A stretch of DNA of 64,000 nucleotides from Eledone cirrhosa (lineage: Eukaryota), in assembly GCA_964016885.1 (NCBI GenBank), contig OZ024740.1, positions 247,752,001 to 247,816,000 of the forward strand, in the 5' to 3' direction. A model generated the notes under the pieces. The model was given only the letters and a program-made list of their open reading frames with translations, made no database searches and was not told where the DNA came from. Shown here in pieces: positions 14,023 through 60,087 of this stretch (its first letter is position 1; the number at the start of each line of letters is the position of its first letter). A program made the translations under genes and the position numbers.

Positions 14023-14050
<28 letters not shown>

Positions 14051-15990: not shown

Positions 15991-15999
15991 TCCCACGTT

Positions 16000-17284: not shown

Positions 17285-17352
17285 TAGGTGGTGGTGGTGT
17301 TGGTTTTGCTACTGTTTTGTAGCAGCAACAGTAGCAAAACCACCTACCGCTC

Positions 17353-20777: not shown

Positions 20778-22617
20778 CCCAACAAATAACGTTCGAAAAA
20801 ACCTGGGCCAATCTAAAAATTCCGAACGAAATATTAGCAGCAAGAGAGAGGTGAACACTGGTGTACAGATGCATTGCAGCAAACAGCAGATAACCGGAGT
20901 TGTTTACTGAACAACATATTGAAACTGCACTGAAATGGATCATGCCAGAGATCAATTATATAAAAAGAGACAGGTAATTCAGCAGTATATCTGTTCTTCT
21001 CAAGTAGGAATCCCTGGCTAAAAATACTCTATGTATCAGACCTATATGAAACGAAGGACTGTGAGGATTTGCATTCCCGAGATTCCAACAGTACTCAACC
21101 TGTATTGGCTCCTGTGATGCGTTAATCCAGAAGAGGACACCATCCTGAAGGCCTACAAAACACGGAGGAAACAGTGGTCGGGAACTAGCTTGGAGATCCT
21201 TCTCCAAACAAACCCTGAGAGTATTCAGAAGATCCCGATTCAATTCACCTTTCGCATGGGTCGGAAATACATGTGATAGTAGAAGAAAAAACCACGTTGT
21301 TTCCACTGTGGGCAGGCTAACCATTTAAGAAACTTCAGGCCTCAACAACAACTGCAACAACCAACAATAACAGCACCAACACCAAAATCTGCAGCAGCAG
21401 CCCTAGCGACAGCACCAGCAAAACCAACAATACCACCGGCAACGGCCCCAGAACCACCACAACCAACAACAAAACAACAACTACAAAGACCACCAAGACC
21501 AATCAAGGGGCACTCTAAAGAAGCGCTCCCACTCCCCCCTCTTCAACACACACAGACACGCACGCCCTCTCACATCTGACACAAGCACAGCAACCTCTTC
21601 ATCACTGAGCGGGGATGAGGAAGAACACCAAAAACCTAAAAAACAAAAAAGAAAGCACAAGAAATCTCAAACAGCAGACAGAGAAGACACACTCGTACCA
21701 AACACAGACACTCATACTACAACACCCATCCCCACAACAACACAGCCGTCAACACAAATCCCACCTTCATGCCGTCCAACAGCGTCGTCGGGCGCTTTGA
21801 CTGACGGACCAGTTAAATTGCTAGGGGTGTGGTTCGATCCGGACCTCCAGACGGACAAAAACTGGGACGAGGTGACGAGCAGGTGGCCTCTCTCATACAG
21901 AAATGGGTCGAGAGGAAGTTATCCCTGCATGGTCGAGCGGAAGTGGCGAACGCGTACATCACGTCCGTCATCTACTACCTACTACCACCTAAGCTTCGCC
22001 TGACTGCGCTGGAGAGTTTGCTCTTTCGCTTTTTTGTGGAAGGGATGTGCTCCGATGGTCAGGCGGTCCATCTGATGTCAACACCCGCTACGCGGAGAAC
22101 TGGGCTTGCCATGGCTAATGATGCGCAGACATGCGCTCAGGCTACGGCATCTCCACCTCTTCCGCGACGGTGATCAGGTGTGGTCACCGTTTGCTGACAC
22201 GGCTTTTCCCAGTTCGTCTCCTTTACGGAGCTGCAGTCCTGGGTGAAGAGACTAGAATGTCTTCAGGCGCTCACAGCCCTCGGCCAGTTGGGCGATGCAA
22301 TCAGTGGAAACTCCACCTTGGCGTTCTATAGAGGTTTAGTGGAAGGCGAAAACGACGACGTCCTTGTGGAAACTCTGGGTGTCGACGAAAGCCAACTAGT
22401 TATTCTCTTCGGTGGGTGGGGGATTTCGGTCCGGGGTCAATAGATAACTTCCAGAAGTCCCTGGCCTGGCAGTGTTACCGGGGAACGTTGCCAGTTCGAG
22501 ATAAACTTTACAGGCATGGAAGTGCCGTCATCCCGGCATGGCGACGAGACCGCCTTGCACGCACTCGTCCAGTATCTGGGCATCGCTGACTTGTGGGTTT
22601 ATGTCAAACATCTGTTA
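20778..22617 (+). mobile_element. Divergent ORF1 fragment (type E) followed by ORF2 3' fragments
   Basis: PDSIHLSHGSEIHVIVE...CFHCGQANHL aligns with the knuckle region of types A/B; ORF2 homology from ~21768 (DGPVKLLGVWF). Confidence 0.65.
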
Positions 22618-25789: not shown

Positions 25790-26360
25790 TAGTGAAAATA
25801 CATGATATTTTCTAAAATACAGTGACTGTATATATATATGTATAAACTCTTTCAAGAACACTATCAAATCTGATATCACGAACACCTCTTTTTCGCCTCT
25901 TCCATTGCTTATTGTTCCCTCTGCAGTAAGGTGGTAGCTAGTAATAATAAATTGTCCTTGCAAATGGGTAGTCCTGGCAAAGTTTGAAATAAGCAGTTAG
26001 AGTAGTTTCTTTAGGAACCAATGTTTGCTGTGAAATAGACACGTTGCCCATCTTTCCAATAAATATGCATATATGTGGGGCTACCAGTACAGCTGGATGG
26101 AAGGATACATAAATTTCCTAATCTCTTCAGCAGCAACTTCGTTATTGATGCCATCACATAAATGAATGTATGACTCAGATCGTAATTCTTTCTGGTGGGA
26201 TCTTAAGAAAGCTAATCTTTCTTCCTGAACTTTTGCATACATGTCCACAGCAAATTGTTGGAACAAAGTTTGTATTCGGGGGGGGGGGGGGATTGAAATT
26301 GTCTTGATGAACCATAAAATAGTAAGAGTAAAAATACATGCACGAGGCTGTTTTCCTGGT
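25790..26360 (-). mobile_element. Helitron Rep/Hel-derived remnant, internally deleted
   Basis: FQQFAVDMYAKVQEERLAFLRSHQKELRSESYIHLCDGI resembles the conserved Helitron Rep block. Confidence 0.7.
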
Positions 26361-26371
26361 ATTATCTGTTT

Positions 26372-26560
26372 AAGGGCAGTCGATTGAGAGTATCGGTAGA
26401 GGGTCGGACGCCATGCTTTGCAGCAAAGAGTTACAGCTTTTATGGTCTGAGTTCAAATCCCGCCGAGGTTATCTTTGCCTTTCATCCTTACGGGGTCGAT
26501 AAAATAAAGTACCAGTAATACACTGGGATAATTGCTGGCCTTGTGCCAAAAGTAGAAACA
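26372..26560 (+). mobile_element. Full-length SINE with 11-bp TSD, inserted in the Helitron remnant
   Basis: attatctgttt at 26361-26371 and 26561-26571. Confidence 0.9.
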
Positions 26561-26669
26561 ATTATCTGTTTTGTGCACATTCCTGAGTCTAAGGAATTCA
26601 GATGCCATATTTGAACTGGTTTTTAAGTGCATAGGAGACAAACAAACGAATATTTATATACATATATGT

Positions 26670-41260: not shown

Positions 41261-41312
<52 letters not shown>

Positions 41313-41315
41313 TAC

Positions 41316-41483
41316 ATTCTGAGTTAAAATCCCGCCGAAGTTAACTTTGCCTTTAATCCTTACGGGGTCGATAACATAAAGTACCAGTAATGCACTGGAT
41401 TCATTTAATCACCCCCCCCCCCCCACACACACACACACACAGTTTTCTGGCTTTGTACCAAATTCAGAAACCATTATTATTAC
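41316..41483 (+). mobile_element. 5'-truncated SINE variant in (ATT)n
   Basis: B box region and core; divergent 3' part; (ATT) tail. Confidence 0.75.
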
Positions 41484-41837
41484 TATTATTGTTATTATTA
41501 CTGTTTATTGTTATACTGTGTGTGTCAAATTTGTTGATAAGGAATATACGACTGTTGTTTCTTGTGTTAAAACTTTGCTGCCAAACCAAAGAATATATTA
41601 ATAATAATAATAATTATTATTATTATTAATATTATTATTATTGAATGCCATGGTTGGCGGAGACTCGGCTCTGTAAGGTATAGTCATTTTTAACCGCTAT
41701 AACAATTGTAAATTGTTTAAAACTTTAACCCTCCTCCTTGTGAGAGGGGTCTTTCTGCCCGTTATTTGGCCCTTCGGGGTTAAATAACCGCTTATTGGGG
41801 ATTAGTGCCCAATATTCATTTTAAACCCCAAAAAAAC

Positions 41838-43953
41838 ATGGCTACAAAAAATAATTTTTACAAGTCACTCCAACTCATTCCGTCTTCTTCCTCAATCATC
41901 ACTACATCAGAGAGAAGATTGTCTCTCTCTACCTCCCTTCTCTAAATGTGTCTCTCTCCCTCCCTTCTCTTTCGCAAGCGACGCCAGTAAAGAAAAAGAA
42001 AAATATAGTTTCTGATAGTTTCCAAGAGCACGTGCATAACGTGGAACATTACTCCACGACGACGACAACGACGAAATATGTGTGCGGTAAATACGGAAAG
42101 CCATTTCATTCGTCTGACGTCATGAATAATAGCAGTAGCAGACCTAATAACAGCAGCAGCAGCAACAGTGACAGGGAAAACAATAGTAGCAGCCGCAACA
42201 GCAGCAGCAGCATAAACAACAACAACAGCAGCAGCAACAACAACAACAACCACAGCAACAGCGGCGGCGGCAGTCGTAGTACCAGCAGCAACAACAAAAG
42301 TAACAGCAGCTCTGACGACAACAACAACAACAACAACAAAGAAAAACCAATCTCGTTTGCAGGTATCGCAAAGAACCTGGATACCATCCTTATAATAAAT
42401 GAGGAATTACAGGAAGCAAAGAAGATGGTGACGAAAACCGGACACCGAGCAATCTGCAAGGCAGCCGAAAAATTGTTCGAAACCCAACAGCACTGTACGG
42501 TCACGTACTGTACAGTAAGCACAAAATCCCGTAGGGTTGAAAGAGCCACGGAGGCTCAAATACAAAAATCTTTGGGGTCTGTGTGGCAGCGGAAAACGGA
42601 TATCACCCGAGGCAAGAAATATGCCACCGTGGACGTGCTTTTTTCCACACCCCAGGAGGCAAAGGCTCAATCCTTAGTGACCCTAAGGAGCGAGGAAATG
42701 ATGTTGGTGCCCTCCTACTGCGGACAACAAATTGTGAGGGTCAAACTGACCCACGTCCCCCCGGGATGGCTCCTTCTTGGCTGGCCGCGTCTGTCCTTGT
42801 CGGAATCGAGGACAAAAAACTGTACTGCAAGTACAGAAAAAAGTAAGAGAAGATTGGGTCGGGACCTCCATTGAGATGTTAATCCAAACCAACCAGGGAT
42901 GCATCGAAGCTATCCCGGATGTGATAGACTTCGATAACAGCACTCAACAGCCCATAAGTGTTGAGGGCAAACGCCCGAAATGCTTTCACTGTGGATCGAA
43001 GACTCACCTCAGGGCCTTCTGCAATGAGAAGACCCTGAGAAAGGAGAAAACCCCCCTCCTTCCGAAACCGGCTCCACTGCTACCAGCAACAGGACAAGCG
43101 GCAAGCAGAAAGGATAGGTCCGTGGCACCCATACCCACGCCACGGAAATCAAGAACAGCAGCAGCAGTGGAAGTATTTACAACAACATCAATACCAACTG
43201 CAGCTGCAACAGAGACGCCACTGCAAACATCACCAACAACAACAAGTGAAAGAGTGGAGCTGGTACCCCTCCCCGACCTCACAGAATCGGACATGGAGTG
43301 TGAGGTAAGAGAGGGATGGCAAAAGGTCGCAAGTAGGCACAAACGCAGAAGCAGCGCATCGTCGCCTTCGAAAAGGGAGGAAAGAAATGAAAAAAGGCTA
43401 CTGCAAAGAGACTTACAGCAGCAATACCACCAACACCATCACCACCCACACTAGCACCACCATCACCACCGGTGGCAACACCACCGCAAACAACAACACC
43501 TTCAACACCAGCACCACAAGCACCAACATCGCAAACACAGCAACAAAACACACACACCCTGCAACAACGACAAGAAAATAGCAGAACCACAACCCACCCC
43601 CATAAAAACAAATGCACAGCAATAAATACACACAACAAGAAACTAATGACTTACATAATTGAACACACAGACATTTCACAGCACGACTACATAATACCAG
43701 ACCAATCAAAACACCAACGAACATAAGAGTGGTAAGAAAAGCACAGAAGCAATACACAAACATTAAAAGGAAATTCCCCAACGCAGTTGGTGATTTCAGA
43801 GACCTAGGAGGGACTCTCAACCAAAGAGTATATTTGGATATACTCACAGAAGAGCCGACAACCAGCCGAAGGGACGATTCAACGGTCCCTTCACCAGACG
43901 ATCAAGTGAAAAGGGATGGAGAAACCATCCTTTCTCTACGAGAAGTAAGGTAG
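41838..43953 (+). pseudogene. ORF1 type B, frameshifted
   Basis: Split ORFs homologous to 53841-55937. Confidence 0.9.
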
Positions 43954-43987
43954 GTGGTCTTTCCCATCTTTTCCACTCCATTTCAAC

Positions 43988-46900
43988 ATGAGCACACTCA
44001 GAATAGGCAGCATAAATACGCGTGGCCTGGGGTCATCATGGAAGCAGGGCCACCTGCTCAACGACCTCAGGTCACTAAAGATAGATGTAGTGGCCATCAG
44101 CGAGACCAGAATCTCCGAAACACGGACCTTCGCACCGATCTTCAGCGGCTACGATGTGTACGCATCTACCACACGTCTTGGATCGGGAGGAGGAGTTGCT
44201 GTGCTTTTTCGGAGAGGTTTAGTTCTCGCCATACGGGCCATCTTCCTGGACCCAGAGGGTAAGCTGGTGGTGCTGGACGTGACCAGCGGAGACGGGCAAG
44301 CTTTCAGGCTAGTGGCCGTCTATGACCCGACAGGAGCAGGGCGGCCTGATTTCTTCCGGCGTCTGGAGACCTTTCTTGAAACGTCCCGCTCTCTAGTGTT
44401 AGTGGGCAACTGGAACGGGATCTTAGATGCACGCTGGGATTGTGTGGGATTAGCGGATAGGGGAGGGGGTGCAAGAGCCTCACCAATCTGCTCAGGCGTT
44501 TTGAACTCTCTGACAGGTACCGATTGGATTTCCCGAATGTTCCAATGTGGATATGGACAAATCGCATAGGGTCATCCAGATCATATCTAGATAGAGTATT
44601 TTGTAGGGAAATAGATAAGTCTAGCATAGGCTGTCCACAATTCAAGATAGTCAGTTACACGGACCACAAATTCGTGATCTGTGTGCTTGACTTAGATAGG
44701 CCTCATAGACGAGGACCCGGCTACTGGAAGCTAAACGCGTCCTTACCAGCGAGCAAGGCCTACAGAGACCGGATTAGCGAACTAGTTAAGCGGGCGTTGA
44801 CGGGAGCCATCGTCAACAAGTGATGGTTTGCTCTGAAAAGAGTGATTAGAATAGAGTCCATTAGGTTTAGTAAGGCTTTAGCAATAGGGAAAAATAGAGC
44901 AGAGGGAGAACTAGTTAGAAAATTAGACGAGGCGCTTAGCAGAGGCATCGTGACCGACGTACTTGCGGCGAAATTGGCCCTTGACCAATTCTTCAATGCA
45001 AAGGACGAAGGCTGCGTTGTCAGAGCTAGGGTGCGTGCTCTCAGACACGAGGGGACGAAAGCCGTTCAATGGGCCCGAGTGGCGGAGGCGCGTCGTGGCA
45101 ACACAGCCACGATCCGGTCTTTGGTGAACTACGACGGGCGCATGCTACTCGATCCCGGGCAAATGTGTGAAGCTTTTCAGCGACACTTCGCTCAACTGTT
45201 CGGGGGCAGCGGCGGGCCGGATCGAGGGATGGACTTTAGTGTCTATCTCGACGGGCTGCCGCGGCCCTCGGCCACTGAGGCGGAGTGTTGCGAAAAGTCG
45301 ATAACAGCCGCTGAAGTACGGGAGGCAATGACTGGCTAAACAAGGGGTAAATCGCCTGGTTTGGATGGTCTTCCCTATGAACTTTACGTACAAATGCCAG
45401 ACTTGTTCGGAGGCCTCTTGGCGTACGTCTACTGCAACTGGCAACAGAACGGGAGAATTCCCAGCTCTGTGAGCCGAGAAGCGGTGGCGCTGCTGAGATA
45501 GAATCCGAACAAGGGGGATAACATAGATAATTTTAGGCCCATAACCCTGCTAAACACAGAGTTCAAGATTTTGGCCAAGGTGCTAGCAAAGAGGTTGGCG
45601 CTTGTCGTTGGTGGTCTGGTGGGAGAGGCGCAGACATGCGCCATTCCCGACAGATCCATCCACGACAACCTCCACCTCATGCGATACATCGTAGAGAGGG
45701 TAGCTAGGGAACCTGGCACGGGTGGGTCTTTGATAAATTTAGATCAGTCGAAAGCTTTCGATAGGGTCGACCATCGTTACCTAGCGGCAGTCTTGAGGGC
45801 GGCTGGATTTGGGCCCGTCTTCAGAGGCTGGATCGCTGCCATGCACGGCGACATCTGCTCTGTGGTGAGAGTGAACGGTCACCTTTCGGAACCGTTCAAC
45901 ATAATGCGCTCGGTCCGCCAAGGATGTCCCCTCTCGTCCCTCTTGTACGTATTGACTCTCGAGCCATTACTGCACAAACTGGAGACGTTGAGGGGGGGTC
46001 CCGCGCGAACTAGGATGCGGAAGATCCGTGTCAGCATATGCGGACGATGTCACCGTAGTGGTGTCGAACGCCAAACACATCGAGGCGATCGGCACTACAC
46101 TAAGAGAATACGAAGCGGTGACAGGAGCAATGATCAACCAGGAAAAGTCAGTGGGCCTGCAGCTCGGCACCTGGAGAGGCAGGTCCATGCCGTCTAACAG
46201 CGTCGTCGGGCGCTGGACGGACGGACCGGTTAAATTGCTAGGGGTCTGGTTCGGTCCGGACCTCCAGACGGACAAAAACTGGGACGAGGTGACGAGCAGG
46301 GTGGCTTCTCTCACCCAGAAATGGGCAGAGAGGAAGCTATCCCTGAAAGGTCGAGCGGAGGTGGCTAACGCGTACATCGCGTCCGTAATCTACTTCAGCA
46401 TGACCGTTGTACCTTGTCCTAAGCCCCGCCTGACTGTGCTGGAGCGTTTGCTCTTTCGCTTTTTTTGGAAGGGTCGCGCTCCGATAGTCAGGCAGTACAT
46501 CTGCTGTCAACACCCGCTACGTGGAGGGCTGGCCATGCCGTGGCTGATGATGCGCAGACACGCGCTCAGGCTACGACATCTCCACCTCTTCTTCGGCGGT
46601 GCTCAGGTGTGGTCGCCGTTTGCTAGACGCGTCTTTCCCCAGCTCGTCTACTTGACGGAGCTGCAGTCCTGGGTCAAGCAAAGACCGAGGGGGAGCTCTT
46701 GGAGACTGGAATGTCTTCAGGCGCTCACAGCCCTCGACCAATCAGGCAATGTGATCGGTGGAAACTCCACCTTGGCGTTCTATAGAGGATTAGTGGAGGG
46801 GAAGAGCGACGACGTACTTGGAGAAACTCTAGGCGGCGACGAAAATCAACTAGCCAATCTCTTCGGACGGACTTTCGGGCCGGGGCCTATGGACAACTTC

Positions 46901-47404
46901 CAGAAATCCCTGGCCTGGCAGTGTTACCGGGGAGCTTTGCCAGTTCGTGATAAACTCTACAGGCATGGAGGTGCCGTCAGCCGGGCATGTCCGAGATGCG
47001 CGCAGGGCGACGAAACCGTCCTGCACGCACTCGTCCAGTGTCCGAGCATTGCTGACTTGTGGGTTTATGTCGAACACCTGCTGTCACGCGTAGGACGGAT
47101 CCAGCTATCAGCTGAGTCCATCGTGATGATTGCCCCTCCCTCTTCCTTTAGCCGGGAAGGGCAGGCAGTTTTTATCTGTCTGGTGGCCATGGCGAAAGAG
47201 ATAGTATGGTGGACACGTTTGAAAGGGCTGAAGACGAGCACTTACCTCTTCGGTGATGCCCTGATTAACTTTTTCAAATTTCATTTGAAAAGGAAAATCA
47301 GGGTAGAGAGGGAACTGCTCTCTTCCCAGCATTTTGTTGAAAGATGGGTGAGAGAGGCAAGAATGGCCCTAGTGAATGGGCCTACTCTGAGTATGTGTCT
47401 GTAA
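43988..47404 (+). pseudogene. ORF2 (APE-RT-CCHC) with frameshifts and stops
   Basis: Pieces 43988-44569, 44524-44823, 44842-45339, 45571-46197, 46028-47404. Confidence 0.92.
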
Positions 47405-47648
47405 ATTAAAGGTGGAAAACTGGGAGAGGGCACTTGCCCTGGTGGTCAGGGTCACTGTGGTCTTTTAATGGGCTTTCTCCACAAATGTCCCTCGGAAGTC
47501 TCCTCCCTATTGGGGAATTTTTCTTTGTTATTTTATTACATCCTCTGTTTTTTTTTACACGCAGAAATGCCCATTTGTACCGTCCTGTGTTGTCCTGTAC
47601 TGTCCTTAATGTCTACTTTATGTAAACCCTTGTGGTCAATAAAGAAAA

Positions 47649-47706
<58 letters not shown>

Positions 47707-47914
47707 GGCGACCTACGTAGGAAATCGTATTATCGTGAGCTCCGCAAAGGTTTGTTATTTCCGTTTGTTTAAAAATTGCCATTTATGGAAAATTTTATTG
47801 TAAAATGTTTATAAGCACACATACATTGTTTTCCGAAAAGGACACCCAAAAAGATTGGGGCCTTGTGCCCAAAATTTTAACTTTTATTATTATCCAAAAA
47901 TTTCTTTGAAAAAA

Positions 47915-49885
47915 ATGGCTAATTCCCCTCTGCACGAAGCAGCTGAAAGCCTTCCTCACAAAATAACACCTCACACCGACACCACCATTGTAAATGTTAC
48001 TACGTTTGCCAACACAAAAAAAAATATAAGCAGTAGCAATATTTTAAATTTGTCTCAGGCAGACATTCATTTCCCGCCATTACCAATGACTGCAGGTGTT
48101 AAACCCTCCACCACCACCACCACCGCGACAACAGAAACAAAAGAAGAAAAAAATAAATTAACTCGTGACGTCGAAATGAAATCAAGCAAAATGGACTCTT
48201 CTCCACCAAAGACGACTGACGTCACCACCACCACAACTGAAAATAAAATTAATATTAACGATAGCAACAACAACAACAATGACATTATAAAACCGACCCT
48301 CAGTTTCGCCATCGTAGCAAAACAATTCGAAGCGTTCACGGTAACTCAAGAAGATTTAGAAAATGCCAAACAAATGGTAAAGAAAGATGGGTACAGGGTC
48401 AGCCTCACGCCCCCCCCCCCCACCCCCACCTAATAAAATGGAGCATCGGCGCCTGTGCACCGTGTCGTATAGAACAATAAATGTAAAATCGCGCCGAGTG
48501 GAACGGGCATCCGAGTCCCAAATCCAAAAAGCTTTGGGACATGTGTGGGCAAGAAAAACCCACATCAGACGTGGGCAAAAGTATGGAACCGTGGATGTGT
48601 TCTTTGAAACACCAGAGGAGGCTAGAGAACACTCCATGGCCCCATTAAAAAGTGACGACCTCACACTCATCCCAAGCTATTGTGGCCAGAGACTCGTAAA
48701 GATCAGGGTGACCCACGTTCCACCGGCCATCGAAATTCCCTGGCTAATAGCGGCTGTCCTCGCCGGCATCGAAGCCAACACGAAAATAATAGCAGTAGCA
48801 AAAGACAAGCAGGAAAACTGGTCCGGATCTGGGATGGAGCTCCTGATCCAAGCGGACCAAAAAAGCATTGAGGAGATCCCAGAGGTAATAGACCTCACTG
48901 ACGGCAGCCACCTCACGGTAATTGTCGAGGGCAGAAGACCTAGGTGTGTCGTTTGTGGTGAAGGAACCCACCTAAGGGCTTTCTGCCCTCAGGCTAAAAG
49001 GTTGAGGCCACCTCTCCTACCCACCCCAGTGACACAACCATCAACACCACCAGTAGCAGAGATGGCAGCAACAACTGTAGCAGCAACAACAGAAGCAACT
49101 ATAACAGCAACAACCCCAGCAACAGTAGCAAAACCAACACCACTACCACCACCAGCAAAACCAACACCACCACCACCCAACGCTTCAGAACTAGCACCAG
49201 CGCCTACACCATCCACCACACCACAACCAAAACTAACGGCTGTGGAGGATTTTCCACTCCCCGGCCTATCACAACTGGAGACAGATTGTGACGACGAGGA
49301 GTGGGAAACGATATCCGGAAAAAAAAAAGAAACCAAAAAAGAAAAAATTCTCTTCCTTCCCCCTCCAAAAACAAAATACAGAGGGAAACAAATAAACTAA
49401 GAAACAAAAAAGTTAGGACAGATATGCCACCATCCACACCAGCATCACCAACCCCATCAACCCAAACACCAACACCATCACCATCATTATCCCCAGCACC
49501 ACAATCACCTACACCACAAAAGTCACCAAAATGCGAAACAGAAACAAACCCACAACAAACGCATACAAAACAAAACAACCAAAACGATACACACTACACA
49601 TCATTAAATTTGAACAACAAGCAATTATTACACTACATCCAACACAACACCAGCATCACAGAAAAAGACTACACAACAACCCCAAAATTCACACCACCTC
49701 CACACATACAAATCACTCGCATCACACAGAAAACGTACATGACACTAAAACAAAAATTCCCCAAAGACATCGGAGACTTCCGACAAGCACTCTCCAGGAG
49801 GATTTATAAGGACATCCTTCCTGAGGAGGCCACAAGCAGTGAAAAGGATGGAAAAGCCGTCCTTCCCCTACGAGAAGTAAGGTAA
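47915..49885 (+). pseudogene. ORF1 type A (nucleic-acid binding, CCHC knuckle), two homopolymer frameshifts
   Basis: MANSPLHEAA...; CVVCGEGTHLRAFC; frame changes at the C-run ~48410-48430 and A-run ~49319-49328. Confidence 0.88.
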
Positions 49886-49919
49886 GTGGTCTTTCCCATC
49901 TTTTCCACTCCTTTTCAAC

Positions 49920-52900
49920 ATGACCTCACTCAGAATAGGCAGCATAAATGCGCGTGGCTTGGGGTGGTCATGGAAGCAGGGCCACCTGCTCAACGACCTC
50001 AGGTCACTAAACATAGATGTAGTGGCCATCAGCGAGACCAGAATCTCCGAAGCACAGGCTTTCGCACCGATCTTCGGCGGCTACGATGTGTACGCATCTC
50101 CCAGCCGTCCGGGATCGGGGGGAGGATTTGCTGTGCTTTTTCGGAGAGGTTTGGATCTTGCCATACGGGCCATCTTCCTGGACCCAGAAGGTAAGTTGGT
50201 GGTGCTGGACGTGACCAGCGGAGACGGGCAAGCTTTCAGGTTAGTGGCCGTCTATGCCCCGACAGGAGCAGGGCGGCCTGATTTCTTCCGGCGACTGGAG
50301 ACCTTTCTTGGAACGTCCCGCTCTTTAGTGTTAGTGGGCGACTGGAACGGGATCTTAGATGCACGCTGGGATTGTGTGGGATTAGTGGATAGGGAAGGAG
50401 GGTGCAAGAGTCTCACCAACCTGCTCAGACGTTTTGAACTGTCTGACAGGTACCGAATGGATTTCCCGAATGTACCAATGTGGACTTGGACAAATCGCAT
50501 AGGGTCATCCAGATCATATCTAGATAGAGTATTTTGTAGGGAAATAGATAGGTCTAGCATAGGCTGTCCACAATTCAAGATAGTCAGCTACACGGACCAC
50601 AAATTCGTGATCTGTGTGCTTGACTTAGATAGGCTTCATAGACGAGGACCCGGCTACTGGAAGTTAAACGCATCCTTACCAGCGCGCAAGGCCTACAGAG
50701 ACCGGATTAGCGAACTAGTTAAGCGGGCGTTCACGGGGGCCATCGTCAACAACAAGTGGTGGTTTGCTCTGAAAAGAGCAATTAGAATAGAGTCCATTAG
50801 GTTTAGTAAGACTTTAGCAATAGAGAAAAATAGAGCAGAGGGAGAATTAGTTAGAAAATTAGATGAGGCGCTTAGCAAAGGCATCGCGACCGACGTACTT
50901 GCGGCGAAATTGGCCCTTGACCAATTCTTCAATGCAAAGGACGAAGGCTGCGTTGTCAGAGCTAGGGTGCGTGCTCTCAGACACGAGGGGACGAAAGCCG
51001 TTCAATGGGCCCGAGTGGCGGAGGCGCGTCGTGGCAACAAAGCCAGGATCCGGTCTTTGGTGGACCACGACGGGCGCATGCTACTCGATCCCGGGCAAAT
51101 GTGTGAAGCTTTTCAGCGACACTTCGCTCAACTGTTCGGGGGCAGTGGCGTGCCGGATCGAGGGATGGACTTTAGTGTCTACCTCGACGGACTGCCGCGG
51201 CTTTCGGCCACTGAGGCGGAGTGTTGCGAAAAGCCGATAACAACCGCTGAAGTACGGGATGCAATGACTAGTTGCACAAGGGGTAAATCGCCTGGTTTGG
51301 ATGGTCTGCCCTATGAACTTTACGTACAAATGCCAAACTTGTTCGGAGGCCTCTTGGCGGACGTCTACTGCTTCTGGCAACAGAACGGGAGAATTCCCAG
51401 CTCTGTGAGCCGAGGAGCGGTTGCGCTGCTGAGAAAGGATCCGAAAAAGGGGGATAACATAGATAATTTTAGGCCCATAACTCTGCTAAACACAGAGTTC
51501 AAGATTTTGGCCAAGGTGCTAGCAAAGAAGTTGGCGCTTGTCGTTGGTGGTCTGGTGGGAGAGGCACAGACATGCGCCATTCCCGACAGATCCATCCACG
51601 ACAACCTCCACCTCATGCGATACATCGTAGAGAGGGTAGCTAGGGAACCTGGCACGGGTGGGTCTTTTATCAATTTAGATCAGTCGAAAGCCTTCGATAG
51701 GGTCGACCATCGTTACCTAACGGCAGTCCTGAGGGCGGCTGGCTTTGGGCCCGTCTTCAGAGGCTGGATCGCTGCCATGCACAGCGACATCTGCTCTGTA
51801 GTGAGAGTGAACGGTCACCTTTCGGAACCGTTCAACATCATGCGCTCGGTCCGCCAAGGATGTCCCCTCTCGTCCCTATTGTACGTATTGACTCTCGAGC
51901 CATTACTGCACAAACTGGAGACGTTGAGGGGGTCCCGCGCGAACTAGGATGCGGAAGATCCGTGTCAGCATATGCGGACGATGTCACCGTAGTGGTGTCG
52001 AACGCCAAACACATCGAGGCGATCGGCACTACACTAAGAGAATACGAAGCGGTGACAGGAGCAATGATCAACCAGGAAAAGTCAGTGGGCCTGCAGCTCG
52101 GCACCTGGAGAGGCAGGTCCATGCCGTCCAACAGCGTCGTCGGGCGCTGGACGGACGGACCGGTTAAATTGCTAGGGGTCTGGTTCGGTCCAGACCTCCA
52201 GACGGACAAAAACTGGGACGAGGTGACGAGCAGGGTGGCTTCTCTCACCCAGAAATGGGCCGAGAGGAAGCTATCCCTGAAAGGTCGAGCGGAGGTGGCG
52301 AATGCGTACATCCCATCCGTCATCTACTACCGCCTGACCGTCGTACCTTGTCCTAAGCCCCGCCTGACTGCGCTGGAGCGTTTGCTCTTTCGCTTCTTGT
52401 GGAAGGGACGCGCTCCGATGGTCAGGCAGTCCATCTGCTGTCAACACCCGCTACGTGGAGGGCTGGGCATGCCGTGGCTGATGATGCGCAGACACGCGCT
52501 CAGGCTACGACATCTCCACCTCTTCCTCGACGGTGATCAGGTGTGGTCGCCGTTTGCAAGACACGTTTTTCCCCAGCTCGTCTCCTTGACGGAGCTGCAG
52601 TCCTGGGTCAAGCGAAGACTGAGAGGGAGCGCTTGGAGACTGGAATGTCTTCAGGCGCTCACAGCCCTCGACCAATCGGGCAATGTGATCGGTGGAAACT
52701 CCACCTTGGCGTTCTATAGGGGATTAGTGGAGGGGAAGAGCGACGACGTACTTGGAGAAACTCTAGGCGTCGACGAAAATCAACTAGCCAATCTCTTCGG
52801 AAGGACTTTCGGGCCGGGGCCTATGGACAACTTCCAGAAATCCCTGGCCTGGCAGTGCTACCGAGGAGCTTTGCCAGTTCGGGATAAACTCTACAGGCAT

Positions 52901-53338
52901 GGAGGTGCCGTCAGCCGGGCATGTCCGAGATGCGCGCAGGGCGACGAAACCGTCCTGCACGCACTCGTCCAGTGTCCGAGCATTGCTGACTTGTGGGTTT
53001 ATGTCGAACACCTGCTGTCACGTGTAGGACGGATCCAGCTATCAGCTGAGTCCATCGTGAGGATTGCCCCGCCCCCTTCCTTTAGCCTGGAAGGGCAGGC
53101 AGTTTTTATCTGTCTGGTGGCCATGGCGAAAGAGATAGTATGGTGGACACGTTTGAAAGGGCTGAAGACGAGCACTTACCTCTTCGGTGATGCCCTGATT
53201 AACTTTTTCAAATTTCATTTGAAAAGGAAAATCAGGGTAGAGAGGGAAGTGCTCTCTTCCCAGCATTTTGTTGAAAGATGGGTGAGAGAAGCAAGTATGG
53301 CCCGAATGAATGGGCCTTCTCTGAGTATGTGTCTGTAA
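49920..53338 (+). pseudogene. ORF2 with a single frameshift in a G-run (~51930)
   Basis: ORFs 49920-51947 and 51860-53338 together match 55973-59392. Confidence 0.92.
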
Positions 53339-53580
53339 ATTAAAGGTGGAAAACTGGGAGAGGGCACTTGCCCTGGTGGTCAGGGCCACTGTGGTCTTTT
53401 AATGGGCTTTCTCCACAAATGTCCCTTGGAAGTCTCCCCCCTATTGGGGAATTTTTCTTTGTTATTTCATTTCAACCTCTGTTTTTTTACACGCAGAAAT
53501 GCCCATTTGTACCGTCCTGTATTGTCCTGTACTGTCCTTAATGTCTACTTTATGTGAACCCTTGTGGTTAATAAAGAAAA

Positions 53581-53626
<46 letters not shown>

Positions 53627-53840
53627 GAATGCCATGGTTGACGGAGGCTCGGCTCTGTAAGGTATAGTAATTTTTAACCGTTAAAACAATTGTAAATTGT
53701 TTAAAACTTGAACCAAATTGTTGATAAAGACACCCTCCTCCTCGTGAGAGGGGTCTTTCTGTCCGTTATTTGGCCCTTCGGGGCTAAATAACCAGTTATT
53801 GGGGTTTTGAACCCAATATTCATTTTAAACAAAAAACAAC

Positions 53841-55937
53841 ATGGCTACGAAAAAGAAATTTCATACGTCACTCCCACTCATTCCGTCTTCTTCTTCCTCA
53901 ATCATCACTACAGCAGAGAGAAGATTGTCTCTCTCCCTCCCTTCTTTAAATGTGTCTCTCTCCCTCCCTTCTCTTTCGCAAGTGACGAAAGAAAAGAAAA
54001 GTCTCGTGCAAAGCGTGCAAAGTTTTTCCACGACGACGACGACAGCGACGAAACAGGTGTGCGGGAAATACGAAAACCCAGTTCATTCGTCTGACGTCAG
54101 GAATAATAGCAGTAGCAGCCGTAATAACAACAGCAACAGTGACAATGAAAACAACAGTAGCAGCCGCAACAGCATCACCAGCAGCATAAACAACAACAGC
54201 ATTAGCAGCAGCAACACCAACAACAACCACAGCAACAGCGGCGGAGGCAGTAGTCGTAGTACCTGCAGCAACAACAAAAGTACCAGCAGCTCTGACGACA
54301 ACAACAACAGCAGAGACAAACCAATCTCATTTGCAGGTATTGCGAAAAACTTGGAAACAATCCTCATAACAAATGAGGAATTAGAGGTAGCGAAGAAGAT
54401 GGTGACAAAGAACGGACACCGAGCAATCTGCAAGGCAGCGAAAAATTTTTTCGAAACCCAAGAGCAGTGTACGGTCACGTACCGTACAGTAAGTACAAAA
54501 TCCCGTAGGGTGGAAAGAGCCACAGAGGCCCAAATACAAAAAGCCTTGGGGTCTGTGTGGCAGAGGAAAACGCACATCACCCGAGGCAAAAAATACGCCA
54601 CCGTAGACGTACTTTTTGCCACACCCCAGGAGGCAAAGGCCCAATCAGTAGTGACCCTAAGGAGCGAGGAAATGGTGTTGGTGCCCTCCTACTGCGGGCA
54701 AAAAATTGTGAGGGTCAAACTGACCCACGTCCCCCCCGAAATGACCCCTTCTTGGCTGGCCGCGTCTGTCCTCGTCGGAATCGAGGACAAAACAACTGTA
54801 CTGCAAGTACAGAAAAAAGTAAGAGAAGATTGGGTCGGCTCCTCCATTGAGATGCTAATCCAAACCAACCAGGAGTGCATCGAAGCTATCCCGGATGTGA
54901 TAGACTTCGATAACGGCACTCAACTGCCCATAAGTGTTGAGGGCAAACGCCCGAAATGCTTTCGCTGTGGATCGAAGACTCACCTCAGGGCCTTCTGCAA
55001 CGAGAAGACCCTGAGAAAGGAGAAAACCCCCCTCCTTCCGAATCCGGCTCCACGGCTACCAGCAACAGGACAAGCGGCAACCAGGAACGATAGGTCCGTG
55101 GCACCCATACCCACTCCACGGAAATCAAAGACAGCAGCAGCAGTGGAAATATTAACAACAACAACAGCAATACCAAATGCAGCTGCAACAGAGACTCCAG
55201 TGCAAACATCACCAACAACAACAAGTGAAAGAGTGGAGCTGGTACCCCTCCCCGACCTTACAGAATCAGACATGGAGTGTGAGGTGGGAGAGGGATGGCA
55301 AAAGGTCGCAAGAAGGCACAAACGCAGAAGCAGCGCATCGTCGCCTTTGAAAAGGGAGGAAAGAAATGAGAAAAGGGTAAAGTCTACTGCAAAGAGACCC
55401 ACAGCAGCAACACCACCAACACCATCACCACCCACACCAGCACCACCATCACCACCGGCGACAACCCCACCGCCAACAACACCTTCAACACCACCACCAC
55501 AAGCACCAACATCGCAAACACAACAACAAAACACACACACCCAGCAACAACGACAAGAAAATAGCAGAACCACACCCCACCCCCAGAAAAACAAATGCAC
55601 GGCAATAAACACACACAACAAGAAACTAATGACTTACATAATTGAACACACAGACATTTCACAACAGGACTACATAATACCAGCACCAATCAAAACGCCA
55701 ACTAACATAAGACTGCTAAAAATAGCACAGAAACAATACACAAACATTAAAACGAAATTCCCCAACGCAGTTGGTGATTTCAGGGACCTAGGAGGAACCA
55801 TCAATCGAAGAGTATATTCAGACATTCTCTTAGAAGAGCCGACGACCAGCCGAAGGGACGATTCAACGGTCCCTTCACCAGACGATCAAGTGAAAAGGGA
55901 TGTAAAAACCATCCCTCCTCTACCAAAAGTACGGTAA
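53841..55937 (+). CDS. LINE ORF1 protein, 698 aa (S/N-rich N-terminus, putative RRM-like core, CCHC knuckle, P/T-rich linker)
   Basis: CFRCGSKTHLRAFC = CX2CX4HX4C; position upstream of ORF2. Confidence 0.9.
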   Translation: MATKKKFHTSLPLIPSSSSSIITTAERRLSLSLPSLNVSLSLPSLSQVTKEKKSLVQSVQSFSTTTTTATKQVCGKYENPVHSSDVRNNSSSSRNNNSNSDNENNSSSRNSITSSINNNSISSSNTNNNHSNSGGGSSRSTCSNNKSTSSSDDNNNSRDKPISFAGIAKNLETILITNEELEVAKKMVTKNGHRAICKAAKNFFETQEQCTVTYRTVSTKSRRVERATEAQIQKALGSVWQRKTHITRGKKYATVDVLFATPQEAKAQSVVTLRSEEMVLVPSYCGQKIVRVKLTHVPPEMTPSWLAASVLVGIEDKTTVLQVQKKVREDWVGSSIEMLIQTNQECIEAIPDVIDFDNGTQLPISVEGKRPKCFRCGSKTHLRAFCNEKTLRKEKTPLLPNPAPRLPATGQAATRNDRSVAPIPTPRKSKTAAAVEILTTTTAIPNAAATETPVQTSPTTTSERVELVPLPDLTESDMECEVGEGWQKVARRHKRRSSASSPLKREERNEKRVKSTAKRPTAATPPTPSPPTPAPPSPPATTPPPTTPSTPPPQAPTSQTQQQNTHTQQQRQENSRTTPHPQKNKCTAINTHNKKLMTYIIEHTDISQQDYIIPAPIKTPTNIRLLKIAQKQYTNIKTKFPNAVGDFRDLGGTINRRVYSDILLEEPTTSRRDDSTVPSPDDQVKRDVKTIPPLPKVR

Positions 55938-55972
55938 GTGGTCTTTCCCATCTTTTCCACTCTATTTTAAAC

Positions 55973-58900
55973 ATGACCTCACTCAGAATAGGCAGCATAA
56001 ATGCGCGTGGCTTGGGGTCGTCATGGAAGCAGGGTCACCTGCTCAACGACCTCAGGTCACTAAACATAGATGTAGTGGCCATCAGCGAGACCAGAATCTC
56101 CGAAGCACGGGCCTTCGCACCGATCTTCGGCGGCTACGATGTGTACGCATCTCCCAGCCGTCCTGGATCGGGTGGAGGAGTTGCTGTGCTTTTTCGGAGA
56201 GGTTTGGATCTCGCCATACGGGCCATCTTCCTGGACCCAGAGGGTAAGCTGGTGGTGCTGGACGTGACCAGCGGAGACGGGCAAGCTTTCAGGCTAGTGG
56301 CCGTCTATGCCCCGACAGGAGCAGGGCGGCCTGATTTCTTCCGGCGTCTGGAGACCTTTCTTGGAACGTCCCGCTCTTTAGTGTTAGTGGGCGACTGGAA
56401 CGGGATCTTAGATGCACGCTGGGACTGTGTGGGATTAGCGGATAGGGGTGGAGGGTGCAAGAGCCTCACCAACCTGCTCAGGCGTTTTGAACTGTCTGAC
56501 AGGTACCGATTGGATTTCCCGAATGTACCAATGTGGACTTGGACAAACCGCATAGGGTCATCCAGATCATATCTAGATAGAGTATTTTGTAGGGAAATAG
56601 ATAGGTCTAGCATAGGCTGTCCACAATTCAAGATAGTCAGCTACACGGACCACAAATTCGTGACCTGTGTGCTTGACTTAGATAGGCTTCATAGACAAGG
56701 ACCCGGCTACTGGAAGCTAAACGCGTCCTTACCAGCGCGCAAGGCCTACAGAGACCGGATTAGCGAACTAGTTAAGCGGGCGTTGACGGGGGCCATCGTC
56801 AACAACAAGTGGTGGTTTGCTCTGAAAAGAGCGATTAGAATAGAATCGATTAGGTTTAGTAAGGCTTTAGCAATAGAGAAAAATAGAGCAGAGGGAGAAC
56901 TAGTTAGAAAATTAGACGAGGCGCTTAGCAAAGGCATTGCGACCGACGTGCTTGCGGCGAAATTGGCCCTTGACCAATTCTTCAATGCAAAGCACGAAGG
57001 CTGCGTTGTCAGAGCTAGGGTGCGTGCTCTCAGACACGAGGGGACGAAAGCCGTTCAATGGGCCCGAGTGGCGGAGGCGCGTCGTGGCAACAAAGCCACG
57101 ATCCGGTCTTTGGTGGACCACGACGGGCGCATGCTACTCGATCCCGGGCAAATGTGTGAAACTTTTCAGCGACACTTCGCTCAGCTGTTCGGGGGCAGCG
57201 GGGGGCCGGGTAGAGGGATGGACTTTAGTGTCTACCTCGACGGACTGCCGCGGCTCTCGGCCACTGAGGCGAAGTGTTGCGAAAAGCCGATAACAGCCGC
57301 TGAAGTAAGGGAGGCAATGACTGGCTGCACAAGGGGTAAATCGCCTGGTTTGGATGGTCTGCCCTATGAACTTTACGTACAGATGCCAGACTTGTTCGGA
57401 GGCCTCTTAGCGGACGTCTACTGCAACTGGCAACAGAACGGGAGAATTCCCAGTTCTGTGAGCCGAGGAGCGGTGGCACTGCTGAGAAAGGATCCGAACA
57501 AGGGGGATAACATAGACAATTTCCGGCCCATAACTCTGCTAAACACAGAGTTTAAGATTTTGGCCAAGGTGCTAGCAAAGAGGTTGGCGCTTGTCGTTGG
57601 TGGTCTGGTGGGAGAGGCGCAGACATGCGCCATTCCCGACAGATCCATCCACGACAACCTCCACCTCATGCGATACATCGTAGAGAGGGTAGCTAGGGAA
57701 CCTGGCACGGGTGGGTCCTTGATCAATTTAGATCAGTCGAAAGCTTTCGATAGGGTCGACCATCGTTACCTAGCGGCAGTCCTGAGGGCGGCTGGCTTTG
57801 GGCCCGTCTTCAGAGGCTGGATCGCTGCCATGCACAGCGACATCTGCTCTGTGGTGAGAGTGAACGGTCACCTGTCGGAACCGTTCAACATCATGCGCTC
57901 GGTCCGCCAAGGATGTCCCCTCTCGTCCCTCTTGTACGTATTGACTCTCGAGCCATTACTGCACAAACTGGAGACGTTGAGGGGAGTCCCGCGCGAACTA
58001 GGATGCGGAAGATCCGTGTCAGCATATGCGGACGATGTCACCGTAGTGGTGTCGAACGCCAAACACATCGAGGCGATCGGCACTACACTAAGAGAATACG
58101 AAGCGGTGACAGGAGCAATGATCAACCAGGAAAAGTCAGTGGGCCTGCAGCTCGGCACCTGGAGAGGCAGGTCCATGCCGTCCAACAGCGTCGTCGGGCG
58201 CTGGACGGACGGACCGGTTAAATTGCTAGGGGTCTGGTTCGGTCCGGACCTCCAGACGGACAAAAACTGGGACGAGGTGACGAGCAGGGTGGCTTCTCTC
58301 ACCCAGAAATGGGCGGAGAGGAAGCTATCCCTGAAAGGTCGAGCGGAGGTGGCTAACGCGTACATCGCGTCTGTCATCTGCTACCGCCTAACCGTCGTAC
58401 CTTGTCCTAAGCCTCGCCTGACTGCGCTGGAGCGTTTGCTCTTTCGCTTTTTGTGGAAGGGACGTGCTCCGATGGTCAGGCGGTCCATCTGTTGTCAACA
58501 CCCGCTACGTGGAGGGCTGGGCATGCCGTGGCTGATGATGCGCAGGCACGCGCTCAGGCTACGACATCTCCACCTCTTCCTCGACGGTGATCAGGTGTGG
58601 TCGCCGTTTGCTAGACGCGTTTTTCCCCAGCTCGTTTCCTTGACGGAGCTGCAGTCCTGGGTCAAGCGAAGACCGAGAGGGAGCGCCTGGAGACTGGAAT
58701 GTCTTCAGGCGCTCACAGCCCTCGACCAATCGGGCAATGTGATCGGTGGAAACTCCACCTCGGCGTTCTATAGAGGATTAGTGGAGGGGAAGAGCGACGA
58801 CGTACTTGGGGAAACTCTAGGCGTCGACGAAAATCAACTAGCCAATCTCTTCGGAAGAACTTTCGGGCCAGGGCCTATGGACAACTTCCAGAAATCTCTG

Positions 58901-59392
58901 GCCTGGCAGTGCTACCGAGGAGCCTTGCCAGTTCGGGATAAACTCTACAGGCATGGAGGTGCCGTCAGCCGGGCATGTCCGAGATGCGCGCAGGGCGACG
59001 AAACCGTCCTGCACGCACTCGTCCAGTGTCCGAAAATTGCTGACTTGTGGGTTTATGTCGAACACCTGCTGTCGCGTTTAGGACGGATCCAGCTATCATC
59101 TGAGTCTATCGTGAGGATTGCCCCGCCCTCCTCATTTAGCCGGGAAGGGCAGGCAGTTTTTATCTGTCTGGTGGCCATGGCGAAAGAGATAGTATGGTGG
59201 ACACGTTTGAAAGGGCTGAAGACGAGCACTTACCTCTTCGGTGATGCTCTGATTGACTTTTTCAAATTTCATTTGAAAAGGAAAATCAGAGTAGAGAAGG
59301 AAGTGCTCTCTTCCCAGCATTTTGTTGAAAGATGGGTGAGAGAAGCAAGAATAGCCCGAGTGAATGGGCCGACTCTGAGTATATATCTGTAA
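55973..59392 (+). CDS. LINE ORF2 protein, 1139 aa: APE endonuclease, reverse transcriptase, C-terminal CCHC
   Basis: GSINARG, ISETR, GDWN, YLDRV, TDH; KSPGLDG, FRPITLLN, LDQSKAFDRVDH, QGCPLS, YADD; CPRC..ETVLHALVQC; WKLNASL typical of L1/Tx1. Confidence 0.97.
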   Translation: MTSLRIGSINARGLGSSWKQGHLLNDLRSLNIDVVAISETRISEARAFAPIFGGYDVYASPSRPGSGGGVAVLFRRGLDLAIRAIFLDPEGKLVVLDVTSGDGQAFRLVAVYAPTGAGRPDFFRRLETFLGTSRSLVLVGDWNGILDARWDCVGLADRGGGCKSLTNLLRRFELSDRYRLDFPNVPMWTWTNRIGSSRSYLDRVFCREIDRSSIGCPQFKIVSYTDHKFVTCVLDLDRLHRQGPGYWKLNASLPARKAYRDRISELVKRALTGAIVNNKWWFALKRAIRIESIRFSKALAIEKNRAEGELVRKLDEALSKGIATDVLAAKLALDQFFNAKHEGCVVRARVRALRHEGTKAVQWARVAEARRGNKATIRSLVDHDGRMLLDPGQMCETFQRHFAQLFGGSGGPGRGMDFSVYLDGLPRLSATEAKCCEKPITAAEVREAMTGCTRGKSPGLDGLPYELYVQMPDLFGGLLADVYCNWQQNGRIPSSVSRGAVALLRKDPNKGDNIDNFRPITLLNTEFKILAKVLAKRLALVVGGLVGEAQTCAIPDRSIHDNLHLMRYIVERVAREPGTGGSLINLDQSKAFDRVDHRYLAAVLRAAGFGPVFRGWIAAMHSDICSVVRVNGHLSEPFNIMRSVRQGCPLSSLLYVLTLEPLLHKLETLRGVPRELGCGRSVSAYADDVTVVVSNAKHIEAIGTTLREYEAVTGAMINQEKSVGLQLGTWRGRSMPSNSVVGRWTDGPVKLLGVWFGPDLQTDKNWDEVTSRVASLTQKWAERKLSLKGRAEVANAYIASVICYRLTVVPCPKPRLTALERLLFRFLWKGRAPMVRRSICCQHPLRGGLGMPWLMMRRHALRLRHLHLFLDGDQVWSPFARRVFPQLVSLTELQSWVKRRPRGSAWRLECLQALTALDQSGNVIGGNSTSAFYRGLVEGKSDDVLGETLGVDENQLANLFGRTFGPGPMDNFQKSLAWQCYRGALPVRDKLYRHGGAVSRACPRCAQGDETVLHALVQCPKIADLWVYVEHLLSRLGRIQLSSESIVRIAPPSSFSREGQAVFICLVAMAKEIVWWTRLKGLKTSTYLFGDALIDFFKFHLKRKIRVEKEVLSSQHFVERWVREARIARVNGPTLSIYL

Positions 59393-59653
59393 ACTAAAGG
59401 TGGAAAACTGGGAGAGGGCACTTGCCTTGGTGGTCAGGGTCATTGTGGCTTTTTACTGGGCTTTCTCCACAAATGTCCCTCCGAAGTCTCCCCCCTATTG
59501 GGGAATTTTTCATTGTTATTTTCATTGTTATTTTTGTTACATCCTCTGTTTTTGTTTTTTTTACACGCAGAAATGCCCATTTGTACCGTCCTGCATTGTC
59601 CTGCACTGTCCTTAATGTCTACTTTATGTAAACCCTTGTGGTTAATAAAGAAA

Positions 59654-59705
<52 letters not shown>

Positions 59706-59706
<1 letters not shown>

Positions 59707-59900
59707 AGGGCGGTGAATTGGCAGTATCGGTAGAGGGTTGGACGCCATGCTTTCTAGCATAGTTACGTCCCTTTACGGTTTGAGTTCAAATCCCGCTGAG
59801 GTTAACTTTGCCTATCATCCTTACGGTGTCGATAAAATAAAGTACCAGTAATGTACTGGGTAATTGCTGGCCTTGTGCCTAAAGTAGAAACAATTATTAT
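59706..59900 (+). mobile_element. Full-length SINE inserted at the end of the LINE tail
   Basis: A and B boxes; attattattataa on both sides (59695-59707, 59893-59905). Confidence 0.9.
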
Positions 59901-60087
59901 TATAATTTGGGAGGGTCATGCTGCCAAGAAATCTTTAAAACAAATACAAAAACGAAATATATATATATATATATATATTTCGCTCTTATAGCTCTGTTTC
60001 ATCTGAATTATTGAGCCCTCTGCCGCTCATTTCGAATATTGTTTATCGTGAACTCGTGCGCCGATTTTTCGATACTCGATCTTTCTA

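Follow-up and report, generated by a model that had tools for sequence, protein, structure and literature searches.

Splice-site sequences at the ORF1 stop and in the 3′ untranslated region of an Eledone cirrhosa L1/Tx1-type LINE: candidate signals for an ORF1-only message

Why should a retrotransposon that is copied from RNA carry the sequence of a splice donor across the stop codon of its first gene? The question is raised by a 64,000 nucleotide (nt) stretch of the Eledone cirrhosa genome (assembly GCA_964016885.1, contig OZ024740.1, positions 247,752,001 to 247,816,000 of the forward strand; hereafter the window, numbered from its first letter). It holds several copies of one long interspersed element (LINE) family of the L1/Tx1 type, all on the plus strand, three of which stand head to tail at 41643-59655 with (ATT)n between them. 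The last of these, copy A3, is organised around two open reading frames (ORFs), an inter-ORF spacer and a 3′ untranslated region (3′UTR), as follows:

53627-59655, plus strand: copy A3, a full-length L1/Tx1-type LINE of type A with both ORFs intact (from ORFs, Pfam and mapped ends)
53841-55937, plus strand: ORF1, 698 amino acids (aa), with a CX2CX4HX4C knuckle (from the ORF list and motif)
55931-55939, plus strand: D1, a 5′ splice-site consensus over the ORF1 stop; predicted intron start 55934, phase 2
55938-55972, plus strand: inter-ORF spacer, pyrimidine-rich, with AAC at its end before the ORF2 ATG
55973-59392, plus strand: ORF2, 1139 aa, with its own ATG at 55973; APE-type endonuclease, reverse transcriptase and zf-RVT (from Pfam)
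55982-55986, plus strand: proximal CTCAG in ORF2 codons 4-5, the acceptor proposed in the initial annotation
59535-59570, plus strand: distal 3′ splice-site-like sequence in the 3′UTR, with a T-rich tract, CAG and an 84 nt AG-free zone
59571-59655, plus strand: predicted 85 nt last exon (computed), with an in-frame stop at 59629-59631 and AATAAA at 59644-59649
59656-59705, plus strand: (ATT)n tail or target repeat

The initial annotation placed donor-like sites at six ORF1 ends, and all six were confirmed at their positions (55934, 49882, 11598, 43950, 16264 and 18885), giving a donor at 6/6 junctions between ORF1 and ORF2 in the window. At 55934 the reading frame ends CG/G TAA GT, where the slash marks the predicted exon-intron boundary. 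The remaining five sites belong to the following copies:

47707-53581, plus strand: copy B2, type B, full-length, frameshifted; donor 49882, distal acceptor 53496
41643-47649, plus strand: copy A1, type A, full-length, frameshifted; donor 43950 (GTAGGT), distal acceptor 47564
9440-12042, plus strand: copy B1, type B, without its 3′ part; donor 11598
16004-17283, plus strand: decayed type D fragment; donor 16264, with an out-of-frame TAG coming first
17355-20788, plus strand: decayed type C copy; donor 18885, phase 1

Donor strength was scored as a simple count of matches to the consensus MAG/GTRAGT, not with a trained splice model. By this measure the site ranks first of 314 GT sites in A3, joint first of 290 in B2 and first of 307 in A1. 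Across the 53627-59655 element, just 0.3% of positions have a site of this kind within -6 to +12, and none of the 59 other TAA triplets in A3 has a comparable site nearby. The spacer and the final ~45 nt of ORF1 are common to the four A and B copies, so the six sites represent three independent types. The earlier claim that the donor persists across diverged ORF1 types thus stands to the extent that every type has it, with three independent instances and not six. RNA structure at the junction did not exceed that of shuffled sequences (5/5 folds within 0.6 standard deviations; A3 spacer z -0.51).

Evidence that the signal has been conserved came from outside the window. A scan of GTDB genomes turned up a related LINE, arranged in tandem on contigs of a bin labelled bacterial (G001); the array contigs are evidently eukaryotic host DNA present as contamination. 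The relative has 41-42% identity to the window element in ORF2 and 23% in the ORF1 core. In its junction the ORF1 TAA is followed by G/GTAAGT, the ORF2 ATG lies 14 nt past the stop, and the spacer is purine-rich. The donor reads AAG/GTAAGT in 65/65 copies found, while base +7 varies (G in 40, C in 19, T in 6). It is the best of about 370 GT sites in three of the four subfamilies scored and joint best in the fourth, and a 9-of-9 donor this near occurs at only 0.3% of positions in the relative. For each of the six window copies, the longest string shared with the relative's junction coincides with the donor in the same register. In the B copies this string is 14 nt long, exceeding every null window (0/381 and 0/383 as long); in A3, C and D some null windows give a match at least as long. 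The string is in register on the donor, yet the two lineages translate it in different frames, so what is constrained is the nucleotide sequence. Judged by its conservation, the donor at the ORF1 stop is a real signal at the nucleotide level.

The signal has a narrow distribution. A survey of 135 loci gave 133 endonuclease hits, 30 of which were dropped before clustering because no ORF1 end lay within -25 to 150 nt; the other 103 formed 38 clusters. A donor of at least 8 of 9 matches at the ORF1 stop was found in three clusters, against 0.48 expected from stop-matched nulls, and was missing from the other 35. The three are the relative in G001, L032 and L026; L032 has a window-like AG/G TAA GT layout that is missing in its cluster mate. 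The donor is limited to a few lineages. In a FastTree phylogeny of 34 sequences, the window element, both LINE families of the G001 bin and sequence P0012 form one clade with a support of 1.00; this tree was built solely from relatives and six database proteins, and left out clusters with an ORF2 under 700 aa, including L032.

A candidate partner for the donor lies far downstream. In all three full-length window copies (59570, 53496 and 47564), a T-rich tract, a CAG and an AG-free zone of 64-84 nt are found 85 nt before the 3′ end. Joining the donor to this site would remove 3,615-3,637 nt (3,637 in A3), keep the last Arg and add 19 codons, ending at TAA, TGA and TAA in the three full copies, with AATAAA 73 nt past the acceptor. 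The relative has a comparable acceptor about 265 nt past its ORF2 stop, in which the tract varies yet is pyrimidine-rich before the TAG in 58 of 59 copies. A third family (L170, from the G001 bin) combines strong acceptors with a perfect donor 41 nt past the ORF2 stop; all three lineages of the clade therefore have a strong acceptor-like site in the 3′UTR. Since a distal acceptor needs no fixed phase, it would also explain types C and D.

What is observed comprises the conserved donor, the acceptor-like site and, downstream of it, a stop and a poly(A) signal. Our tentative best explanation of these features, held with slightly more doubt than confidence, is that the donor pairs with the 3′UTR acceptor at 59570 and skips all of ORF2, giving a short ORF1-only mRNA. 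Part of the RNA would be spliced, with 55933 joined to 59571 and ORF2 cut out, and this message would over-supply the ORF1 protein (698 aa plus 19 new residues in A3). Unspliced RNA would give the ORF2 protein from its own ATG, probably by re-initiation, and would also be the template that is copied. In addition, U1 at the donor may prevent premature polyadenylation of the long RNA, a role known from the Arabidopsis element EVD. If only unspliced RNA is copied, every genomic copy should keep the spacer and ORF2, while an ORF1-only message without reverse transcriptase would leave few genomic copies.

Genomic copies and sequencing-run contigs were examined for traces of such a message. Among 60 copies of the relative that span the donor to the distal acceptor, none lacked the ORF2 or 3′UTR segment, and exact donor-acceptor retrocopies of the type described for human L1 (SpIREs) numbered 0/60 in the relative and 0/6 at the window junctions; both are small samples. 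One window copy, E (type B, 14044-15987), has lost 456 nt from the end of ORF1 through the spacer into the start of ORF2, and the ends of this deletion are compatible with GT..AG. It was considered as a splice and rejected: it starts 147 nt upstream of the donor at a weak donor, and has 3 nt of microhomology, making it probably a deletion. Sliding produced a GT..AG fit in 2/16 deletions. As a separate observation, cleanly bounded internal losses of 25-483 nt are frequent in the decayed copies in 14044-20788, with 15 counted across E, C and D. No RNA sample was listed among the sequencing runs with matches, a result that does not bear on expression. Contigs from four of the seven listed runs, all without a library record, were compared with 55560-59650, and none of the 15 joints listed, of 1,027, fell at the donor; a contig that keeps the spacer spans the donor in runs X6 (record 21) and X4 (record 13), and contigs drop rare forms. 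Contig depth over the element rises toward the 3′ end in X6 and is flat in X2. This hints that X6 is RNA, although the depth of contigs is no guide to the relative levels of different gene parts, and the pattern was counted neither for nor against splicing. The case for splicing of any kind here draws on sequence and conservation only.

Several further observations concern the 3′UTR. The relative has a second donor 17 nt past the ORF2 stop, or across that stop in one subfamily; it reads GTRAGT in 60/60 copies, varies only at +3 (A/G 33/27) and has a nearer acceptor 34-52 nt behind it. In locus L085 the junction donor and the second donor stand at 5991 and 9486, and the acceptors at 9522 and 9735. 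Such combinations of a strong donor just past the ORF2 stop and 3′UTR acceptors occur in both relative families (L085:9486-9735 and L170:16132-16500), where they could delimit a 3′UTR intron that every genomic copy has retained. In the window family the region just past the ORF2 stop contains no strong donor. The strong junction and 3′UTR donors of the window element and the two relative families all lie within 50 nt of a stop. Under the 50-55 nt rule of nonsense-mediated decay, messages spliced from them would escape decay.

A number of points weigh against an ORF2-skipping intron. With just three of the 38 distant clusters carrying it, the donor is not a general L1/Tx1 trait, and as the 65 copies of the relative represent one host and one lineage, independent support is limited to two lineages. 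At the L170 junction the stop and start overlap as TAATG and the donor is weak; the strong donor of this family is in the 3′UTR instead. On the acceptor side, the distal site of the window is third, not first, of 392-443 AG sites by a crude score. T-rich 3′UTRs readily give acceptor-like sites, with equal scores in the donor-less distant relatives L120 and L122, and the 3′UTR acceptors of the relative could serve its second donor, not D1. No ORF1-only genomic copy was seen among the 60 spanning copies of the relative or the three full window copies. Apart from these points, the 3′UTR donor-acceptor pairs retained by the relatives, if spliced, are hard to square with strict cis-preference, the tendency in human L1 for the RNA that makes the ORF2 protein to be preferentially copied, where spliced RNAs leave retrocopies at about 2% (PMC5860796).

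How far do the same data allow the model of the initial annotation, in which a 52-53 nt intron is spliced out of part of the RNA to give an ORF1-ORF2 fusion of about 1,830 aa, with unspliced RNA as the template? The two splicing models predict different junctions, 55933 to 55987 for the fusion and 55933 to 59571 for the ORF2 skip. The arithmetic of the initial annotation was correct: phase 2 meets phase 2 when 55934-55986 (53 nt) or 49882-49933 (52 nt) is taken out, and in all four A and B copies an excision of 52-53 nt preserves the frame, keeping ...R-IGSIN with Leu4 changed to Val. The stretch from donor to ATG is free of AG in A/B and C, CTCAG is invariant in 6/6 copies, and introns of this size exist in some lophotrochozoans (flatworm modes near 32 and 58 nt; PMC4040987); the literature searched gave no figure for minimal intron size in octopods. 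Its two caveats were also borne out, with an out-of-frame TAG coming first in type D (48 nt) and a phase 1 donor in type C, for which the TAG at 59 nt alone gives an in-frame join. The first YAG is consequently in frame in A/B and out of frame in C and D, or one of three spacer types, which is the chance level, although C and D are decayed and later single-base changes are possible. By a simple pyrimidine score the proximal CTCAG ranks 27th of 443 AG sites, not above chance. The expectation that GT/AG and phase would be conserved together therefore held for the donor; the phase held in one of three window types, and the relative leaves no room for it.

The relative bears on the fusion most directly, because its donor follows the stop and is not succeeded by a pyrimidine tract; a fusion from that donor is impossible and only an ORF1-type product could result. 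Five nt upstream of it is an overlapping but weaker site (5 of 9); the first AG behind that one is a GAG at ORF2 codon 11, and a splice to that GAG would delete a conserved Asn motif. Nor does the pyrimidine tract point to an intron. Of 23 spacers, 13 reach 60% pyrimidine or more, 11 of these without a strong donor, so the tract is a group-wide trait. The start of ORF2 also argues against the pairing of the donor with CTCAG. AACATG is invariant in all six window copies, and among 18 database proteins with at least 40% identity over the first 70 residues, a Met lies within five residues of Leu4 in 16 and Arg, whose codon supplies the AG of the proximal acceptor, is at position 5 in 10. The Met count is modest evidence and inflated, as many of these proteins are decayed copies and gene callers favour Met starts; on the best reading, ORF2 would start at its own ATG on unspliced RNA.

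In protein searches, ORF2 residues 1-260 gave 4 matches among 4,206 candidates, none fused to ORF1. ORF1 matched neither longer nor shorter proteins, and no long protein with the window ORF1 was present among 234 candidates, which is a weak test. The Octopus sinensis gene model P0001 covers ORF2 residues 30-90 only and does not include the proposed acceptor. Those ORF2 relatives that have an N-terminal extension mostly read through a hydrophobic, spacer-like stretch. One Logan protein, P0129, has 121 residues in frame ahead of the ORF2 start and a weak 23 aa match to ORF1 (E 0.01) at its N-terminus; tentatively, it is a read-through product or a rearranged decayed copy. A fusion message would moreover make reverse transcriptase, and if cis-preference holds in this clade it would seed spacer-less copies with both proteins, which should then build up. 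As the initial annotation had noted, the genomic copies keep the spacer, and 0/6 junction-bearing window copies are without it. Taking into account the stronger acceptor in the 3′UTR as well, the fusion is the weaker of the two splicing readings, and we regard it as distinctly unlikely.

Readings with little or no splicing have also to be set against ORF2 skipping. U1 might simply land at the donor and seldom splice it, shielding the long intron-less RNA, together with the U-rich tract, from early cleavage and polyadenylation or retaining it in the nucleus, with ORF2 made by re-initiation. U-rich tracts may provide TIA-1-type help, and all three families have strong donors in non-coding stretches right behind stops with U-rich sequence next. 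No spliced genomic copy was seen, and a splicing-independent role of U1 is known in EVD (PMC5580714). By itself this view leaves the conserved 3′UTR acceptors and their long AG-free zones unexplained. AATAAA/ATTAAA hexamers also occur in ORF1, upstream of the donor, while the ORF2 of the five elements scanned has none, so there is little downstream of the donor to protect; we consider this rather unlikely. The motif could instead have no role in splicing, as another cis-signal (e.g., for termination and re-initiation) or as an inherited accident around an Arg codon and TAA. AGG plus TAA already gives most of it, and it stands at the stop in 2/37 other distant clusters, in one case missing in the cluster mate. 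Against this are the absence of conserved structure in the five folds described above, and the relative, in which the motif matches the donor consensus 9 of 9, is not part of the coding frame and stays constant amid varying neighbours; this reading is very unlikely. It is highly improbable that host or array effects are responsible, with read-through RNA spliced from a copy's donor to an acceptor within that copy or in the one after it, or with host genes taking the 3′UTR acceptor for a last exon. Head-to-tail arrays are present in both hosts and an octopus gene model contains a piece of the window ORF2, though not at these sites, and such effects give no reason for the element itself to conserve a donor across lineages.

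LINEs are thought unable to keep introns, since the RNA that makes the enzyme is the RNA that is copied, and the excess of ORF1 over ORF2 protein is usually ascribed to inefficient re-initiation. An ORF2-skipping donor, if true, would be a way round intron loss: the ORF1-only message carries no reverse transcriptase, would not be copied in cis, and its intron would survive. It would then be the counterpart, outside the long terminal repeat (LTR) elements, of the Gag strategy of Drosophila copia, which makes a subgenomic spliced Gag mRNA. Taken further, the 3′UTR observations could describe an L1/Tx1 clade with a retrovirus-like splicing programme, in which ORF-end donors and 3′UTR acceptors yield dedicated mRNAs (ORF1-only and, in the octopod branch, perhaps also a fusion), only unspliced RNA is copied, message and template pools are separate, and cis-preference is relaxed; we think this broader scheme unlikely. 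In the open-access literature no LINE with this donor arrangement was found; most subscription journals and Repbase notes lay outside the search.

Among LTR elements, Ogre is an analogue of the fusion model: it has a longer, stop-containing intron between protease and reverse transcriptase, and its reported splicing removes stops and fuses two coding regions, whereas the window fusion fails in the relative. The Ty1/copia elements are closer to ORF2 skipping. Arabidopsis EVD makes a spliced subgenomic Gag mRNA while U1 protects its RNA from early polyadenylation (PMC5580714), and barley BARE1 is a further LTR-element precedent for a spliced Gag message (PMC3735527). As in these elements, the structural ORF of the window element ends at a conserved U1-type donor, and in both a short spliced mRNA would serve the structural protein and unspliced RNA the enzymes and copying, although this is only predicted for the window element. 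The Ty1/copia elements, however, are LTR elements with one gag-pol ORF and demonstrated splicing, while the window LINE is known here from its sequence. EVD couples a short intron to early termination; the predicted intron in the window would take in the whole of ORF2 and stop close to the poly(A) signal of the element itself.

Within LINEs, human L1 also contains splice sites, and its spliced RNAs (SpIREs and SpORF2) can in principle be copied into the genome (PMC5860796, PMC2896524). These use a 5′UTR donor, lose promoter or ORF1 sequence and are dead ends, amounting to about 2% of full-length L1s; the window donor, in contrast, stands where ORF1 ends and has been kept in distantly related lineages, and the search for spliced copies found none. 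Donor-like sites in the 5′UTR of the window element (53654-53670, weak) and of the relative (L085:3743-3790, 8 of 9) recall the human L1 5′UTR donor. Tx1, Kibi, Koshi and Keno resemble the window element in having two ORFs, a CCHC knuckle in ORF1, an ORF2 with APE endonuclease, reverse transcriptase and zinc finger, and a repeated target (PMC4494074, PMC5203782). They differ from it in that the window target is (ATT)n, and the accessible portions of their descriptions mention no splice signals at ORF ends.

By anatomy, the element is an ordinary L1/Tx1-type LINE, and the new part is the conserved splice signals around ORF2. It has two ORFs, a 5′UTR, spacer, 3′UTR and simple-repeat tail, with neither the LTRs nor the gag-pol with protease and integrase of Ty1/copia. 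The endonuclease, reverse transcriptase and C-terminal zinc finger that define ORF2 in the L1/Tx1 group were all found by Pfam (PF03372, PF00078 and PF13966), and a profile of ORF2 and three relatives had human L1 ORF2p as its top solved-structure match (E 3e-110). All five 5′ ends checked directly follow (ATT)n and all three 3′ ends run into it; the element thus has the target sequence preference of the Tx1 clade, with (ATT)n as target. The window ORF1 had no zinc-finger or RRM match on Pfam, though its CCHC knuckle is visible and zf-CCHC was matched in the ORF1 of both relatives. Its Atlas look-alikes were CCHC and ZCCHC3 RNA-binding domain (RBD) clusters at 0.89-0.93 (features 0.91-0.93), making a ZCCHC3-like RNA-binding region a candidate, as a lead only. 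The nearest named proteins were from Octopus sinensis (64% over 61 aa) and Argonauta hians (56%), and L1-Tx1 families have been listed among those recently active in Octopus vulgaris (PMC13282606). An Rfam search of the window gave no match, and no relatives of the element were found in viral contigs.

Types A and B differ in 5′UTR and ORF1 and have ORF2 in common at about 96%. The end of type A ORF1 is an imperfect 14-codon repeat (55848-55933), of which type C (18842-18884) has the first unit, followed by its stop and its own donor. In appearance, type A combines an ORF1 of the C kind with an end, spacer and ORF2 of the B kind. A dispersed repeat of ~200 nt lies beside ATT tracts at 59706-59907, 12120-12338, 26360-26565, 149-331, 5732-5847 and 41311-41398. 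We take it to resemble an octopus short interspersed element, and it may have its (ATT)n target or tail in common with the LINE.

The G001 contigs C3-C19 (loci L081-L116, L125 and L136-L171) contain about 0.55 Mb of LINE tandem arrays of two L1/Tx1 families, and C16 also has long ORFs of another repeat. No further LINE arrays were found in 41 other genomes of the same genus. The arrays are nearly homogeneous within a contig, and two adjacent copies have one common 5′ truncation point, which suggests duplication at the DNA level. In Patella caerulea, one contig has eleven near-identical ORF2 gene models whose locus numbers lie close together (cluster P0045), which suggests another tandem LINE array in a mollusc.

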